A stretch of DNA of 63,564 nt, counting the filler, from Collodictyon triciliatum (taxonomy: Eukaryota): the NCBI GenBank assembly GCA_043381765.1. It is 19 parts of 19 records of this genome, joined end to end, with 100 filler letters (N's around TTAATTAATTAA, not from the genome) between each part and the next. Parts side by side here need not be neighbours in the genome. Positions count along the whole stretch, not along the records: positions 56,885 to 60,174 come from JBHJMP010007515.1; positions 60,275 to 63,564 come from JBHJMP010007516.1; 17 more parts are not named here. One strand, written 5' to 3'. Positions 3,690-63,564 of this stretch are shown piece after piece. Numbering within the stretch: position 1 is the stretch's first letter; every line of letters starts with the position of its first letter. The translations under genes and the position numbers were made by a program. The notes below the pieces were generated by a model. It was not told the origin of the DNA and ran no database searches. It worked only from the letters and a program-made list of their open reading frames with translations.

Positions 3690-4715
3690 TACCAGGCTCC
3701 TGAATGGCTTTTTTTGTTCAAAGTTTCTTTGGCTTTTTTTTTTTCGATTCTTATGTATTTGTGATCGATATAGATCGTTTCTTGGCTTCATCGAGTCCGA
3801 CGCGCCACACGAGCTGATCTTCCTGTTTGTTCGCATCGCAGAGAACAGCTTGAAACGGTTGTAGGCGACAAGTCTCCTGTATTTATTATGCTAGAAAATA
3901 ATTACCGTATATTAGTTACCGGGGTTGTTGAGATTTCGTATCCAAATATATCCATTTTACGATGAACAAAGAGTGTGTTGGTCTCCAAAAGNNNNNNNNN
4001 NNNNNNNNNNNNNNNNNNNNNNNNNNNNNNNNNNNNNNNNNNNNNNNNNNNNNNNNNNNNNNNNNNNNNNNNNNNNNNNNNNNNNNNNNNNNNNNNNNNN
4101 NNNNNNNNNNNNNNNNNNNNNNNNNNNNNNNNNNNNNNNNNNNNNNNNNNNNNNNNNNNNNNNNNNNNNNNNNNNNNNNNNNNNNNNNNNNNNNNNNNNN
4201 NNNNNNNNNNNNNNNNNNNNNNNNNNNNNNNNNNNNNNNNNNNNNNNNNNNNNNNNNNNNNNNNNNNNNNNNNNNNNNNNNNNNNNNNNNNNNNNNNNNN
4301 NNNNNNNNNNNNNNNNNNNNNNNNNNNNNNNNNNNNNNNNNNNNNNNNNNNNNNNNNNNNNNNNNNNNNNNNNNNNNNNNNNNNNNNNNNNNNNNNNNNN
4401 NNNNNNNNNNNNNNNNNNNNNNNNNNNNNNNNNNNNNNNNNNNNNNNNNNNNNNNNNNNNNNNNNNNNNNNNNNNNNNNNNNNNNNNNNNNNNNNNNNNN
4501 NNNNNNNNNNNNNNNNNNNNNNNNNNNNNNNNNNNNNNNNNNNNNNNNNNNNNNNNNNNNNNNNNNNNNNNNNNNNNNNNNNNNNNNNNNNNNNNNNNNN
4601 NNNNNNNNNNNNNNNNNNNNNNNNNNNNNNNNNNNNNNNNNNNNNNNNNNNNNNNNNNNNNNNNNNNNNNNNNNNNNNNNNNNNNNNNNNNNNNNNNNNN
4701 NNNNNNNNNNNNNNN

Positions 4716-54589: not shown

Positions 54590-56660
54590 TCTTTTCTTTT
54601 CCTCTCTGGGCCATGGTAGCGGCGTCTCCGTCTTCATGCTTGTTGCCAGCGCCGCCATCATCCTCCACCCGATGGCCAAGTGGGTGGACGTCTGAACGCG
54701 ATCGGTTGATTCGAAGACATAAAGTGTATCTCTTGAGGCAACAAAGTCCCCCTCCTTGACAGCGGCCTGGTCTTTTTACCAAAATGCTGTGGTGTTACGA
54801 GTTGGGTCTAGTCGCTTTAATGTTGTTTGATTGTTGTTATTATTCTTTCGTTTTTTTTTATATGTATATAGCATGTGCTAATCACGCAACCGACCAAGGA
54901 AAAGTGTGCCGACGATTGCGGAGATGAGAAATAGCACGGAGCGCAAGAAAAGCGATGCTCCTGTGGGGCCAGGTGTCTGCACTTTGCCTAGTTTCTGGCA
55001 AGATGCAGAAAGGTGGCTGGTGTCTGCCAACGGCATCGCGCGGCGCAGACTTTGGAACGGGTTGAGAGTGACGCGGCAGAACTCGGGCAGGTCAGATTTC
55101 ATCTTCTGCAGCGCCTGAACCCATTCGTCAGCCTCGCCCGCTTCGCGAAACAAAAGGACGATGCTGGACAGCCGCTCGCACAGGGGCATGGACGCAACCA
55201 CTATTTCGCACATGACGCCCCCAAGCCCCTGGCAGTCCGAGGCCGGGCCGCTCTGGATGTCTCTGTGTAATGTGGGCAGCAGGTCAACAGCGTCGAAGCA
55301 GTTCTGCCCGCAGATGGGGTGCTCGACATCCCGTAGCGACGTTATGATTCGGACCTCAGTGATGCAACCCACAGAGACAAAGTCGATCACCTGAGCCTTC
55401 TGCAGCGAGTGGCAAAAGTACAATGTTCCTCCTCCCATCGGTACTAGGCATACCTCTCGCCAAAGTGTGGACTGGCTCCCGTCGATCTTCAGCAGACGGC
55501 GAGCCCAACCAACACGAATCTGTACCATGTCTTTGGGGGTTATTACATGTCTTACAACGAAGAAAATAGACAGAAAATGAGGGCGTAGTTGTTGGATGAG
55601 GGGGCATACTGTTTGCATGAAATCCGCGGGAATCTCGACAGACTTCACATTTACTGTGTCAGCGTGATATTTTTCCCAATGGTGGACCTTTTCACGAGTT
55701 TTTTCTGGAAATTTGGTATGTTGTGAGTACGTTTCATCTCTTGCCTGTGTATCCATTGAAGTCACTTTGATGTGCTTAATAGAATCCTATGTGGTATTGA
55801 TTCAATGGGTCAATCTGGGGTATGATAGGCTCGTTCAGAGATAATATACAATTGATATGTGATGTTTATCTGCCGTTTTTTTTGTTTTATGAAAGAAAGA
55901 GCTGGTGGATCAATTACCTTGATGAAGTTGGGAAGGGGCAAATTTGTGTCGACTGGAAGTGTTGAAGCGCTTTCTCCCTGTACACCACAGATAATTGGTT
56001 GCCTTCATTTTAATCATCATGCAATATAAATGTATGGAACACCTATCTAGGTGTATTGCTTCAGTACCCAAAGCGAGTCACTAGACTTATCATAGTATTA
56101 TGGATATAATTGGTAGGCTTTGACAGTATTTTGTAATGATAAATGAACCCACTTTTATATCGGTTGTTTAAATATTATCCTGCTTTCTATAAAGACTTTT
56201 CATTTTGATCAATCGTATAGTAAAGAACAAAAATTAAAAAAAATTAAAAAAATTAAAATGGTCAAACTTTTAGTTTTGTCCTCCTCGACATTTTTTCCTT
56301 GTCCTTTTCTTTGTCTCTGTCTTTTTCCCTATCTTTGTCCTTGTTTTGGTCCTTATCTTTCTCTCTTTCTTTCTCCTTATCTCTATCCTTTAGTAAAGTA
56401 GATGATTTCTCTTCGTCTCTTTCTTTGTTTTTTGGTGTAACAGGGTTTGATACCCTTAGAGGCGTGGTAGTCGTTGATGATGAGGCCGAAAGTCCTTTAT
56501 CTTTTGGTTGGATTTTCCCTTCCAGAATTTTTTGATTTGTTGCGATGTTAGAAAACCACCGGTCCAACACAACTTCATCTGATTCGTCCTCTTCTGAGCA
56601 TCTCAACATGTAGATTCTTTCCAAGGTAGCTAAAGAAATCTCCCTTTTCTGTCAAAGAGA
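54590..56660 (-). CDS. Internal exons of an unidentified gene (K/D/E-rich tract and possible PH-like domain)
   Basis: Long open exons at 56262-56624 and 54878-55765 with GT/AG boundaries. GWARRLL..WREV.L..GGTLYF and EADEWVQALQ resemble a PH fold. Confidence 0.5.
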
Positions 56661-56884
56661 ACGTTGGGGATATTAGTATAAAAGAACCAAAACATGGGAA
56701 GCTTTAATTTTTTTTTTTTTTATTCTTCCTTTCAACTTTTGTGCAGGACCGAGGGGGGGGGGGGGGGTTTTTAAATTTTGAGGGNNNNNNNNNNNNNNNN
56801 NNNNNNNNNNNNNNNNNNNNNNNNNNNNTTAATTAATTAANNNNNNNNNNNNNNNNNNNNNNNNNNNNNNNNNNNNNNNNNNNN

Positions 56885-57505
56885 GGATAGTCATAAAAAA
56901 AAATAAGAGTACGGTTGTAAATTTCCAGGATTCGGCAGATATTTTTTAGGAGTTGTTTGCAGAGGTAATTCAAATTCTGTGTTGTAATTACATCCAATCA
57001 CATAAGACCCACCGAAACCAAATTCGCCCTGGTACTGTGAAAATTCTTCATTAGATGTTATATAAACTCTTATTGCCGGTGTCGCAACTGTTTTTCTTTC
57101 AAAATAAAACCGATTGCGAATATTGTCATATCCCATATCATACTGGTCTTGTCCATTGCTTGCTAATAAAGTATTTAATGCAAGGACAACCGCTTGGGCA
57201 TATTGACTTGTGTTATATGTACCCTCAGCAATTGTAATTGTTGAAAAAGTACTGATACTTGTGTTGGTATTCAATACTCGAATTCGCAATTGATTGTATT
57301 GATACAACTCTGTTATCTGATGTATCGTCGTGGGGTAGTATACACTTTTTATAAACAGATTATATGCCTTGTTTTTGATAACTGGGAAATCTGATAAATC
57401 AAAAGTGAAATTGTTGTTTGTCCCACTCACTCGTTTCGATTCCGAATTAATAAAAAGATAATTGGCTTCGTTTACACGTTTTTCATCTAAAAGTCGTCGT
57501 TGCAT
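56885..57505 (-). CDS. Putative minor capsid protein (penton, single jelly roll); runs to the contig edge
   Basis: YLFINSESKRVSGTNNNFTFDL, LFIKSVYYPTTIHQI and TITIAEGTYNTSQYAQAV follow the I.S..R..GT..NF.F / ITI.EG.Y pattern of PLV and virophage pentons. Confidence 0.7.
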
Positions 57506-57538
57506 ACAAGTGTCAATATTTTTTTCTTTATTAAATTA

Positions 57539-57918
57539 ATGGACCAGGAACCTCAAGTTGAATATGTTGAAGATGCACTTATAAAAGCAGTTCCCGAAAA
57601 AAAAAGAACTTTGACTGCCAAGCAGCTCAAAAATTTGGAATTGATGCGGCAGAAAAAAATGGCAAAGAAGGAAGCAGCAAAAATGATTTCTGATTCCGTA
57701 AGAAATTCGGCGAGGGAGGCAGATGCCGAGGAATTCTCTAGTTTAAAAAATGAATTAGCGGAGATTAAAAAAAAAACTGGCCGCCCCGGAAATTGCCGCA
57801 TCCAAATCAAAAAAAAGCCCCAATCAAAAGAAAAAGAATTATAGTTGAAGAATCAGATTCAGATCGAGATTTGGAATATTCCAACCCTTACCTTATGCAA
57901 ATAGTTCGACCGAGGTAA
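57539..57918 (+). CDS. Small charged viral protein, apparently frameshifted at two A-runs
   Basis: MDQEPQVEYVED..KKRTLTAKQLKNLELMRQKK; removing one A from each run (57767-57776 and 57809-57816) joins it to KRKRIIVEESDSD..RPR*. Confidence 0.55.
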
Positions 57919-57945
57919 ATTATTTTTTGTAAAGTAAAAAATAAT

Positions 57946-59688
57946 TTAATAAAGGACCTGGGCATTGTCCTTTCCAATATCCAGGACACGAGTGTGCTCG
58001 ATGATTACCCAGCAGGTGTAGTTATCGATGGGAGTCACTGATGAAACAGCTGCAGATGCAGCAGCAGCAGCATTGGCAGCGGTAACAGATTTTCCCTCTT
58101 TACAAGAAGCTCCGAATTGAAGGCCGACTTGAACGATTCCAGAATTTGAAGATGCGTTGTAACCAGATAGCTCAAACTCATCCGAGTAATCTGACCGAGT
58201 CATAGTCCAACCCAGTGCGAAATATGTAGGAGTTTTCCAGTAAATTTCTTCACAAGATAATGGATTATTATTCTTGTTTGCAATGGTTCCATTTGCCATA
58301 GCAGCATTAACAAGCATATTATTATACACCGCTTTGTTGCTGGCATAAAACGCACCCGCACCTGTTTTTTGTGAAGAGTACACGCTATTTGTAATACTTG
58401 GACTTGATTCAACAACTGGGAAATTGACTTGTCCAAGCATTTCAGCAGATGTGTTATATCCCAGCGCTTTCATTAAATAATTAAGGGCTTCTGGATGTTG
58501 GCACAAAGCTTGTCCATGAAGCCCACTTGTTAAAAGACCATTTGAAGCAGAAATAGTTTGAGCTGCTGCTGGATATGTTAAATACCCTGGATTTTGTAAT
58601 TGAATAGGTACCGATGGCATAACTTTACCATTCACTACGAGTCTTGCTTGAGAGAGACCTTCAATAGCATGCAATCTATCCGTTCCAAGGTAGTTAACAG
58701 TATTTTGCTCAGAGTTTCGAGTAAATATACAATAAATTGCATTGATGTTGCTATACTGAACCGAAATATTCTGAGTAATCCAACCATTTTGTCCTCTGCT
58801 AATTGGAAATTGCGTCATAAAGTAAGTTTCAATTGGTATTTGCAAATTGTTGGAAACCAAATACTGAGAAAGCGCATTATTATAACTGGTTTCAGTTTGA
58901 ATATAATTGATATTCAGGTGGATGTTTGATAAAGTATAACTTAAATTATTATCATCCGAAGCAGTAAATGAATCATATGTATAATTTGCATTCTGCGCAC
59001 AAAATAATACACCGGTCGTAAAGCACTCAGAAGCTGGTGACATCCAAATACGAATTTCAAGACTGTTTGGGCCTAAAAGATATGCTGGTAAAAGTGTTTT
59101 AATATTATTTAGACCTAAATATCTTAAGGGAAATCCAATCTGTATTATGTTACTGGATGTACCGGCCGCACCGATAAGCAATTGTTTGGATTTATCTAAA
59201 ATAGATTGATTTAAACCCATTCCACCACTCATAAGATTTACCCAATTCTGATTATTGCACCAATTGTGCTTGAAAGTTTCCAAATACGAATAGTTGTCTA
59301 TGCGTTCCAATTCTGACCCATTGAGGTATACAGCGATGCGATAAATAAAATATTCGGAACTTTCACAAGGAGCAAGTATTGGTATAGTTCTCGAAGCATC
59401 ATCACCAGCAGTTGAAAAATTGGTGTTTTTTAAATTTCCAATAGCTGCTATAACATTTGCTTCAATTCCCTTGACCTGTAAATCCGCTATTATATGAGCA
59501 CTATCCATTTGAATGCTCCATTCATTGTCAATGGGAACCCTAAAAACAATTTGAGGGCCAGATGAAAAAGTAGCAGTCTGCTCCGTTCCGTTGCTGGGCA
59601 AAACTTGTCTTTGTTGTTTTTCAAGGATAGTTTTCTTCTTGGATGAAATATTTCTGAACTGCAGTTCTTCGGGTAGTGAGTCCATCAT
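57946..59688 (-). CDS. Putative major capsid protein (double jelly roll), PLV type, 580 aa
   Basis: VLPSNG..F..GPQIVFRVP, LNGSELERIDNY, FPLRYLGL..LLP..LEIRIWM, YTLSNIHLNINYI, IPIETY, SNINAIYCIF and VNGKVMP. Beta-rich, intact ORF. Confidence 0.78.
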   Translation of the reverse strand: MMDSLPEELQFRNISSKKKTILEKQQRQVLPSNGTEQTATFSSGPQIVFRVPIDNEWSIQMDSAHIIADLQVKGIEANVIAAIGNLKNTNFSTAGDDASRTIPILAPCESSEYFIYRIAVYLNGSELERIDNYSYLETFKHNWCNNQNWVNLMSGGMGLNQSILDKSKQLLIGAAGTSSNIIQIGFPLRYLGLNNIKTLLPAYLLGPNSLEIRIWMSPASECFTTGVLFCAQNANYTYDSFTASDDNNLSYTLSNIHLNINYIQTETSYNNALSQYLVSNNLQIPIETYFMTQFPISRGQNGWITQNISVQYSNINAIYCIFTRNSEQNTVNYLGTDRLHAIEGLSQARLVVNGKVMPSVPIQLQNPGYLTYPAAAQTISASNGLLTSGLHGQALCQHPEALNYLMKALGYNTSAEMLGQVNFPVVESSPSITNSVYSSQKTGAGAFYASNKAVYNNMLVNAAMANGTIANKNNNPLSCEEIYWKTPTYFALGWTMTRSDYSDEFELSGYNASSNSGIVQVGLQFGASCKEGKSVTAANAAAAASAAVSSVTPIDNYTCWVIIEHTRVLDIGKDNAQVLY

Positions 59689-59714
59689 ATTTTTAAAAAG
59701 AAAATAATTTTCGC

Positions 59715-60126
59715 TTAGTAACCTATTTTATTTCGGATGTTGTCGTCGTATGATTTTATGACTTTTCCCAGGGATTCGTTTCGTTGTCCAGCTCCACGAA
59801 TTACAGGCTCATATTTTTTTAATTGCTTCGTGCCCTGTTCAAATGGCTTCTGCAATTTACTCCCTTCTACAAGACCTGCAACAGTAGCACCCTTTTTACC
59901 TTCAGCTAAGTCAAGTCCCTTTTTCACGTGCCCTTTGTTTGCATTGTACACCTTTTAGTGCCTGCTCCGACAGTCCACCAGTGGCTGTTCGTGCCAAGTC
60001 CCGCAGTCCTCCACCGGTGGCTTTATCAACGGCATTGACTACTTTTTCTCCGACATTCATTCCCTTCCGTACGACTTTAACTGCTCCTTTGAAAAATTTC
60101 TTCAAGCTTCTCCGTGTGAATACCAT
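59715..60126 (-). CDS. Small basic, Gly/Lys-rich protein of about 136 aa (candidate virion core or membrane-active protein), with one frameshift
   Basis: ORFs 59911-60126 and 59715-59951 fuse if one base is removed from the T4 run at 59953-59956 (..EQALKVYNANKGH..). Confidence 0.6.
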
Positions 60127-60559
60127 ATAGTTACTTATAAAAAAATCTATTATGTGAGTTCCTCCTCAAAATTTNNNNNNNNNNNNNNNNNNNNNNNNNN
60201 NNNNNNNNNNNNNNNNNNTTAATTAATTAANNNNNNNNNNNNNNNNNNNNNNNNNNNNNNNNNNNNNNNNNNNNTTGGTTTTTTTTTTGTTTATTTTGGT
60301 TTTCTATGGTTTTCTATTGTTTTATTTTGCTTTATTTTCTTTTATCTTGTTTTTGGTTTTTTTTGTTTATTTTGGTTTTCTATGGTTTTCTATTGTTTTA
60401 TTTTGTTTTATTTTGTTTTATTTTGTTTTATTTTGTTTTATATTGTTTTCTATTGTTTTCTATTGTTTTCTATTGTTTTCTATTGTTTTATTTTGTTTTA
60501 TTTTGTTTTATTTTGTTTTATTTTGTTTTATTTTGTTTTATTTTGTTTTATTTTGTTTT

Positions 60560-60960
60560 CTATTGTTTTCTTTTATTCGACTAGAAGCTCCTGTTGAAGC
60601 TATGCAAGGAGCGAGTTGGTCAGGCAGCCCAACTGGTTGATTGATTATGTAAGCTGCAAGTAGAGGTTAGATGTATTGTGGGAGATATCTTACGACACGT
60701 TCACACATCACTCGTCGCTTGTTGTCAGAGTAGCGATAGAATCCAGGCGTGCTCCAGCAAGTTGTTCAAGAAGATGCATCGCACGAGGTTTTCAAGCCTG
60801 GATATATTGATTTCACGCCCAGTCAACTCATTAGAGCGAGAGAATGCACACACACATACACACTCTCTATAAGGACCGCAGCATATGTCCCCCAATGACT
60901 GTCCAGAGCATTCCAGAGCTGCGAGATATTTGATTTTGCTGACGAGATCTTTGGGATATC
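60560..60960 (-). mobile_element. Second, decayed copy of the LINE-like 3' end, followed by an (AAAAC/AATAG)-type tail at 60275-60570
   Basis: The reverse complement aligns by eye to 37438-37720 (ggacatatgctg.ggtcctta, gcattctctcgctctaatga, gatatctcccaca, aatcaaccagttggg, cctgaccaact) and ends in cgaataaaa. Confidence 0.8.
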
Positions 60961-63173: not shown

Positions 63174-63564
63174 TTCGCAGGCAGATAGTCACCAATCTTG
63201 GCTGCTGCGTGATTATTCCCCGATATACCTGAATGGCTGCATCAATCAATACACGAAACGTGGCGCTGACGAGCTCTAACTGACCGTGTATTTTCTTCAT
63301 TTCCACACAGGTATCGCAATCAAATCATTAATATGAACAAGGGAGAGGGGTGAAGTCTAATGATGTATAATAACGCTGATGAAAGGAGGCGATCGCGCAC
63401 ACGTGTTGGTAAAATGAAGGAAATATATTATTGTTATTGTTTTTATTGTTTTTATTGTTGTTATTGTTTTTATTGTTTTTATTGTTTTTATTGTTTTTAT
63501 TGTTTTTATTGTTTTTATTGTTTTTATTGTTTTTATTGTTTTTATTGTTTTTATTGTTTTTATT

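Follow-up and report, generated by a model that had tools for sequence, protein, structure and literature searches.

Does a short contig in the genome assembly of Collodictyon triciliatum (GCA_043381765.1) carry the capsid genes of a virus and, if so, to which group does the virus belong and where does it reside? Polinton-like viruses (PLVs) are small double-stranded DNA viruses of unicellular eukaryotes (kingdom Bamfordvirae, phylum Preplasmiviricota), with genomes of ~14-40 kb that often bear terminal inverted repeats. Both lakes and protist genomes abound in them, and some seem to shield their hosts from giant viruses; to our knowledge, the host is known for very few. An initial examination of the DNA by eye, here called the sequence-only reading, had proposed a PLV morphogenesis module at positions 56885-60174 of the 63,564-base stretch analyzed (the window). 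The window consists of 19 contigs joined by 18 identical 100-base linkers (N44-TTAATTAATTAA-N44), and the viral finding coincides with exactly one entire contig (JBHJMP010007515.1; 3290 bases, zero N). Our analysis suggests that this contig is quite probably a fragment of a PLV capsid module and, as a weaker claim about which we have very little doubt, that it is the capsid module of a small virus with a double-jelly-roll capsid protein. We regard it as an internal piece of a viral genome, from a PLV of an unnamed freshwater clade. The contig and the linkers on either side of it contain the following features, in which ORF stands for open reading frame and MCP for major capsid protein.

56785 to 56884, no strand: artificial linker, splitting the viral contig from the previous, unrelated contig
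56885 to 57505, minus strand: penton gene, N-terminal ~204 of 291 codons (open ORF 56891-57505, 204 aa), 90% identical to protein P0021 and cut by the contig end
57506 to 57538, no strand: AT-rich, divergent intergenic stretch of 33 bases between the penton and opposite-strand genes, a probable bidirectional promoter; upstream stretches align with those of five to six loci
57539 to 57918, plus strand: opposite-strand gene (open ORF 57539-57844, 101 aa); relatives 129-170 aa
57946 to 59688, minus strand: MCP gene, 580 aa, intact, predicted double jelly roll (from homologues, an AlphaFold2 model, Foldseek and VIA)
59715 to 60126, minus strand: basic protein gene (open ORF 59911-60126, 71 aa), with a frame shift near 59951-59956; relatives 136-144 aa
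60150 to 60173, minus strand: last seven codons and stop (NFEEELT-stop) of a putative A32-type packaging ATPase gene, matching the C-terminus of the ATPase of locus L005
60175 to 60274, no strand: artificial linker, leading to the next, unrelated contig

Read along the minus strand, the contig therefore runs from the tail of the ATPase gene through the basic protein, the MCP and the small gene on the other strand to the first two thirds of the penton. The four ORFs on which the sequence-only reading was built (basic, 580-aa, small opposite-strand and penton-like) are present as it described them. Seven metagenome loci (L001-L007; 1.6-5.2 kb) encode relatives of the MCP and, wherever these loci cover it, gene order is constant: basic protein, MCP, opposite-strand protein, 291-aa penton and then a further ORF. 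Since the 580-aa protein has 20 relatives and metagenome loci repeat the whole set of four genes with order and orientation unchanged, the four ORFs are, on this comparison, not products of chance. Three of them are not whole, as the 204 aa are part of 291, the 71 aa are the front half of their protein and the 101 aa lack a conserved C-terminus. The genes had also been called intronless in an otherwise intron-dense genome. They are real and compact, but the comparison mixes unlinked contigs, and since the contigs are unlinked, the intron density of the others is uninformative about the surroundings of the viral one. For the same reason, namely that the window was joined from separate contigs, arguments from neighborhood across the linkers are void. 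Searches of the contig's four proteins against Pfam and PHROGs returned no significant match, and a search of NCBIfam with the MCP and four proteins of its relatives, including a full-length penton homologue, returned none for the MCP or penton.

A search of 5.8 billion clustered proteins with the MCP found 20 relatives at 41-82% identity, all of them unnamed or "hypothetical", on contigs reaching 24,938 bases (P0005), with P0011 on one of 16,634 and P0002 on one of 16,000 bases. A profile made from the 21 MCP sequences recovered the same 20 proteins and nothing more; as far as these searches reach, the family is small and isolated at the sequence level. Against the sequences of the PDB, the single sequence gave one chance match (E 0.24) and the 21-sequence profile none, and hmmscan of the MCP detected no Pfam capsid family (Capsid_NCLDV, Capsid_N, Sputnik_MCP_1st, MCP_V20_C) at E <= 1. 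The fold was then modeled by AlphaFold2 from the 21-sequence alignment, giving a mean pLDDT of 65 and a pTM of 0.67, with long loops of low confidence. When this model was compared to the PDB by Foldseek, 218 matches were obtained at E <= 0.001, led by the MCPs of Singapore grouper iridovirus (6.8e-12), Sputnik (2.8e-11) and mavirus (7.5e-11) and including those of Emiliania huxleyi virus 201 (EhV-201), faustovirus, African swine fever virus (ASFV; p72) and Paramecium bursaria chlorella virus 1 (PBCV-1), as well as vaccinia D13. Among the matches listed, all 25 from Foldseek against the PDB and all 50 from VIA were double-jelly-roll capsid or scaffold proteins, which agrees with the jelly-roll capsid fold first proposed for this ORF. 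In BFVD, Foldseek found 99 matches at E <= 0.001, the best at 1.5e-15, among them MCPs of virophages, nucleocytoplasmic large DNA viruses (NCLDVs) and adomaviruses and two proteins of Tetraselmis viridis virus S1. The nearest ESM Atlas clusters were viral capsid clusters (0.97), a score that serves as a lead only. Overall, the 580-aa protein models as a double jelly roll. Its gene is under purifying selection, with a dN/dS of 0.157 against the nearest relative (L001), at a dS (0.93) that is close to saturation.

Along its full length, the 204-aa ORF matches residues 1-204 of the 291-aa protein P0021 at 90% identity, and two more penton relatives have 291-293 aa. An exhaustive HMMER search with a full-length penton homologue returned, at E <= 0.001, 10 representatives out of 1.84 billion, and the 90%-identity cluster of the closest representative has 47 members, on contigs of up to 24,938 bases. 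A fold model was made for a full-length homologue (L003:2797-3672; 87% identical to the contig's 204 aa) and reached a pLDDT of 82. Foldseek placed the mavirus penton at ranks 1-6 (from 1.6e-11), followed by the adenovirus penton base and the Sputnik penton. VIA, searched across 48,161 chains, scored the PBCV-1 penton at 16.9, a second PBCV-1 chain at 12.9, mavirus at 12.6, aviadenovirus at 12.5 and Sputnik and EhV-201 at 11.4 each, after which the next score fell to 7.3; the top six chains are all capsid-vertex proteins. The jelly-roll fold expected of the penton-like ORF was thus borne out on the full-length homologue, and the 204-aa ORF is, by this model, the N-terminal part of a single-jelly-roll penton. 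Since the missing 87 C-terminal residues hold several jelly-roll strands, the copy in the contig, as assembled, would be unable to form a whole penton.

The sequence-only reading had stated that no packaging ATPase is visible, which proved not quite right, as the last seven codons of an A32-type ATPase gene lie at the right edge of the contig. In L005, a 240-aa ATPase is encoded directly upstream of the basic protein gene, with its stop overlapping the basic-protein start, and this ATPase matches Pox_A32 (E 3e-13; 50.2 bits, where the cut-off is 22.8). It ends in ...KNFEEELT, and the NFEEELT-stop of the contig's right edge is in the matching frame and place. Because this edge fits the end of the L005 ATPase, the gene is, judged by that match, cut off by the contig end rather than absent. 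Also encoded in L005 is a 736-aa protein whose DUF5906 domain (E 6.2e-16) is of the superfamily 3 (SF3) helicase type and which shows a weak VapE-like match; its N-terminal half contains no named domain, and it has no sequence match in the PDB. This replication gene was seen in the relative, and none of it lies within the viral contig. Scans of seven neighboring proteins from the related loci (~8.5 kb) found no protease, VLTF3, VLTF2, RuvC or HUH domain, and neither the contig nor these loci contain a protein-primed DNA polymerase B (pPolB) or an RVE integrase.

According to extracts of PMC11161782, a compact MCP, penton, A32 ATPase and SF3-helicase replication protein make up the PLV gene set, and PLV replication modules other than pPolB typically consist of an SF3 helicase fused to a primase or PolA. 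Since the relatives carry a Pox_A32 ATPase and a DUF5906 primase-helicase beside the MCP-penton module, this gene set seems to be represented in the group, with the penton near the MCP and the FtsK/A32 ATPase found in L005 and, by its tail, in the contig. The proposal of a PLV morphogenesis module is therefore supported both by the folds and by the relatives' ATPase and DUF5906 protein; the PLV label itself was assigned by fold and gene content rather than by phylogeny. By analogy with relatives of solved structure, the icosahedral shell would be built from pseudo-hexagonal capsomers, each an MCP trimer, with a penton pentamer closing each of its twelve vertices and the ATPase pumping the genome into the capsid.

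Several observations weigh against this assignment. There is no sequence-level link to any named family in Pfam, PHROGs, NCBIfam, the PDB or the profile search, and three queries of IMG/VR yielded no confirmed relative (pattern stretches: 76 for the MCP alignment, 15 for the ATPase and 5 for the penton). The MCP model is middling, with 137 residues at a pLDDT below 50 and TM-scores of 0.35-0.46, which are modest because of the model's loops, and the penton fold was modeled on a homologue, whereas the contig's copy lacks the last 87 residues. In VIA, the MCP scored a Z of 15-19 against NCLDV-type MCPs and 12.5-13.7 against virophage MCPs, which would also suit another small NCLDV-related group. 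The related genome seen amounts to only ~8.5 kb and, finally, three broken genes of four would also be compatible with a decaying copy.

The remaining two genes of the module are small, and neither protein belongs to a known family. The 71-aa ORF corresponds to the first ~58 residues of a lysine-rich protein of the relatives; counted from the translation, these residues include 13 K/R and 4 D/E. The next frame encodes the rest of the protein (…VYNANKGHVKKGL…NKIGY-stop), with its stop at 59715-59717, and the best ESM Atlas score for the basic protein (0.88) is under lead level. In L001-L004, L006 and L007, the opposite-strand gene is placed and oriented as in the contig. Its N-terminal half is conserved, with 25 invariant columns in six sequences, and its conserved C-terminal end (...EYSNPYLMQIVRPR; ...NPYLxQ[LI]VR in the relatives) sits in another frame. 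From position, charge and conservation, our guess is that both are virion-internal or assembly proteins. An AT-rich element ending in TTTTCT[AT][AT] precedes the ATG of the MCP and opposite-strand genes by ~13-16 bases (in 57506-57538 and 59689-59714) and is kept in all of the loci L001-L007 that cover those places, some of which read TCTA. Such short conserved AT-rich stretches ahead of genes are probably promoters, and this element is possibly the promoter of the clade; it may resemble the late promoters of giant viruses. Beyond the penton, the further ORFs of L004 (3652-4182) and L003 (3689-4198) start identically and then differ. The last 46 residues of the L004 ORF match GDP-mannose 4,6-dehydratase (TIGR01472, E 6.2e-14), as would be seen in a chimeric metagenome contig or with an acquired sugar-metabolism gene.

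As assembled, only the MCP gene is intact, the other three being frame-shifted or cut. The penton shift stems from two extra bases in a 9-base homopolymer (56895-56903), ~10 bases from the contig end. These bases are absent from L002 and L003 and from the covering contigs in all four metagenome runs compared, one of these contigs differing by one other letter over 141 bases. The shift in the opposite-strand gene is at or near an A10 run (57767-57776), within a stretch that is indel-variable among relatives; at 57767, run X2 has one base fewer and run X3 does not. In the basic protein gene, the one extra base (59955/59956) is absent from all three aligned loci and from the covering contigs of X2 and X3. 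Altogether, the contig has three homopolymers of at least nine bases, two of which carry frame shifts, and the MCP gene has no homopolymer of seven bases or more. As far as extracts of PMC10120064 indicate, stops and frame shifts in contigs of short-read protist assemblies are often artefacts and often vanish after polishing. Old decay is a less likely origin of the three disruptions than errors in sequencing or assembly or private mutations that arose very recently. The intactness of the MCP alone proves little, since in about one case in ten three randomly placed indels would spare it.

Whether the virus is integrated is a separate question. Both ends of the contig fall within viral genes, with no non-viral base at either; they are assembly breaks inside viral genes and not the termini of an element. 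The sequence-only reading had held that integrated and free states cannot be told apart from the contig and that no terminal repeats are visible, and on both points our results concur: a repeat search of the contig found no direct repeats and five short imperfect inverted pairs, none of them terminal. The contig contains no junction between virus and host DNA, which bears on whether integration can be called shown rather than on how likely it is. Extracts of PMC10120064 describe lone MCP contigs in short-read protist assemblies as usually being pieces of integrated elements of 14-40 kb. Going by priors only, we lean toward an integrated element of the sequenced eukaryote, possibly multi-copy, and from the same priors there is a slight chance that the origin is neither this nor a free virus, an episome or a contaminant.

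Evidence on where else this virus occurs came from metagenomes. Fragments of 141-339 bases with at least 99% identity were found in contigs of three runs (X1, X2 and X5) from three studies, the runs being labeled as hot-spring and freshwater metagenomes, and pieces with 85-95% identity were found in all four metagenome runs compared. Since such near-identical environmental fragments exist, the virus or its carrier cells circulate outside the culture. Metagenome contigs extend past both ends of the viral contig, for example in a 4844-base record, and one runs on for 4.5 kb. A tblastn search of a phage record collection with the MCP gave no match, and among the sequencing runs searched for the words of the stretch, none contained half or more of them (best share 0.13); no RNA run was listed.

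These matches bear on the alternative that the contig is not chromosomal and comes from a free or episomal virus, or from a contaminant or the virus of another organism in the culture, co-assembled with the protist. We consider this a real, if lesser, possibility. The near-identical fragments in X1, X2 and X5 would fit the same virus or its carrier in the environment, the contig has viral sequence up to both of its ends, and the MCP is intact and under purifying selection. In addition, no related gene turned up in the other 18 contigs of the window, where tblastn with eight proteins of relatives gave nothing better than E 0.7. However, the metagenome matches are equally explicable by cells with integrated copies. 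A replicating virus is usually sequenced deeply and assembles into a long contig, whereas here we have a 3.3-kb piece with frame errors, and a broken short piece is the pattern that multi-copy integrated elements show in short-read protist assemblies (PMC10120064, extracts).

Alternatively, the contig might be a decaying, non-functional endogenous relic, with genuine frame shifts and three dead genes out of four. The three disruptions do lie within ~1.5 kb of non-MCP coding sequence, and those of the basic protein and penton are absent from every relative compared there. On the other hand, the MCP runs for 1743 bases without stop or shift at the low dN/dS given above, two of the shifts are in homopolymers of 9-10 bases, one of them 10 bases from the contig end, which are error-prone places, and a 99%-identical environmental contig has an open penton frame. 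A relic is unlikely, and errors or very recent mutations remain our preferred explanation of the shifts.

As to the virus group, a small NCLDV-related lineage resembling the Mriyaviricetes, instead of a PLV, would account for an MCP and penton that in VIA are structurally closest to giant-virus proteins. According to extracts of PMC11253617, the markers of Mriyaviricetes are an NCLDV-like MCP recognizable by profile, VLTF3, RuvC and an HUH endonuclease, and mriyavirus MCPs match NCLDV capsid families by profile with high significance, whereas the contig's MCP matched no Pfam capsid at E <= 1. Neither these domains nor VLTF2 occur in the seven neighboring proteins scanned, the longest contig bearing a relative is 24.9 kb as compared to mriyavirus genomes of 35-45 kb, and differences in Z on a model with a pLDDT of 65 are weak evidence; we thus think such a lineage very improbable. 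Equally remote is a virophage (Maveriviricetes), for although virophages also have an MCP-penton-ATPase module, the mavirus penton is the top Foldseek match of the penton homologue (1.6e-11) and the Sputnik and mavirus MCPs are within the top ten MCP fold matches, no virophage MCP family of Pfam matched at E <= 1, the structural Z of the MCP is lower to virophage than to NCLDV-type MCPs, and no cysteine protease occurs in the ~8.5 kb of related loci seen, most of the genome being outside them.

The other contigs of the window give a different picture from that of the PLV fragment. Eighteen of the 19 contigs measure ~3.3 kb (3290-3307 bases) and one 2380 bases, and two have internal N gaps (3992-4715 and 11763-12157). 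Frames of at least 100 aa span 0.83 of the viral contig, which ranks second of the 19; in the others the share is 0.20-1.00, with three reaching 0.72-0.78, and in 11 of these 18 the longest frame is below 200 aa. They hold pieces of eukaryotic genes (PIG-U, an Alg9-like mannosyltransferase, COX5B, a PHO4 phosphate transporter, WD40 and NHL repeats), so it is reasonable to regard the window as a eukaryote assembly with split genes. One contig (51014-54304) is a single end-to-end open frame of 1095 aa with 14 WD40 repeat stretches (Pfam); its product, a very regular tandem-repeat protein, continues after the WD40 part with repeated helical units of ~70 residues (…AVSIVAECYENGWGVEKD…). The 2380-base contig (54405-56784) is shorter and richer in G+C than its neighbors (0.435, and ~0.50 over 55001-56000) and encodes a 292-aa ORF without a Pfam family; it may originate from another organism. 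The contig after the viral one contains low-complexity DNA: it is T/C-rich at 60306-60597, where two frames are open (FYCF… repeats), and it closes the window with a hexanucleotide-type microsatellite at 63328-63564.

What does the contig add? In a survey of all GenBank protist assemblies, more than 35,000 such MCP hits were counted in 462 protist genomes, many of them on short contigs (PMC10120064, extracts). The occurrence of PLV capsid genes on short contigs in assemblies of protists is therefore already described and very common, and this contig, as it stands, is real but fairly ordinary, being one more short MCP contig of a kind counted in tens of thousands (same extracts). A modest extra value lies in the sequence isolation of its MCP family combined with the near-identical environmental counterparts, by which the assembly may provide an orphan freshwater clade with a host, the clade being 20 MCP clusters with no named relative and an MCP fold nearer to giant-virus than to virophage capsids. 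A capsid module in the assembly of a named culture, near-identical to environmental sequences, could link this metagenomic clade to a cultivable host, and an MCP family for which Pfam has no model could be placed between PLVs and giant viruses in the evolution of capsids. It is conceivable, though we hold it only tentatively, that the contig gives the first host link for this sequence-isolated clade and belongs to an intact, inducible provirus of the sequenced protist, with the frame shifts being assembly errors.

In comparison to known systems, the Nucleocytoviricota (faustovirus, ASFV p72, PBCV-1 Vp54 and penton) and Mriyaviricetes differ from the present module in that its MCP has no Capsid_NCLDV or Capsid_N match, its relatives' contigs are at most 25 kb and the seven neighbors scanned include no NCLDV hallmark transcription factor. 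The virophages Sputnik and mavirus have the same capsid module, with MCP fold matches at E ~1e-11; in contrast, the contig's MCP is without a virophage Pfam domain, and its relatives carry a primase-helicase and, in the loci seen, no protease. Mavericks/Polintons likewise share the module of double-jelly-roll MCP, penton and ATPase and are frequently integrated in eukaryotic genomes, but their defining protein-primed PolB and RVE integrase are not among the loci seen, L005 having a primase-helicase instead. From PLVs, for example Gezel-14T, Tetraselmis viridis virus S1 and those found endogenously in protists in the survey of Bellas et al. 2023 (PMC10120064), the contig differs in that our searches gave no sequence match to a named PLV protein, its MCP family being a tight set of 20 unnamed clusters. 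With these viruses it shares the double-jelly-roll MCP, the penton and the adjoining A32/FtsK ATPase and, through L005, a probable SF3-helicase replication protein. PLVs also have compact intronless genes with short AT-rich spacers, and they too appear as short MCP contigs in fragmented protist assemblies and freshwater metagenomes.

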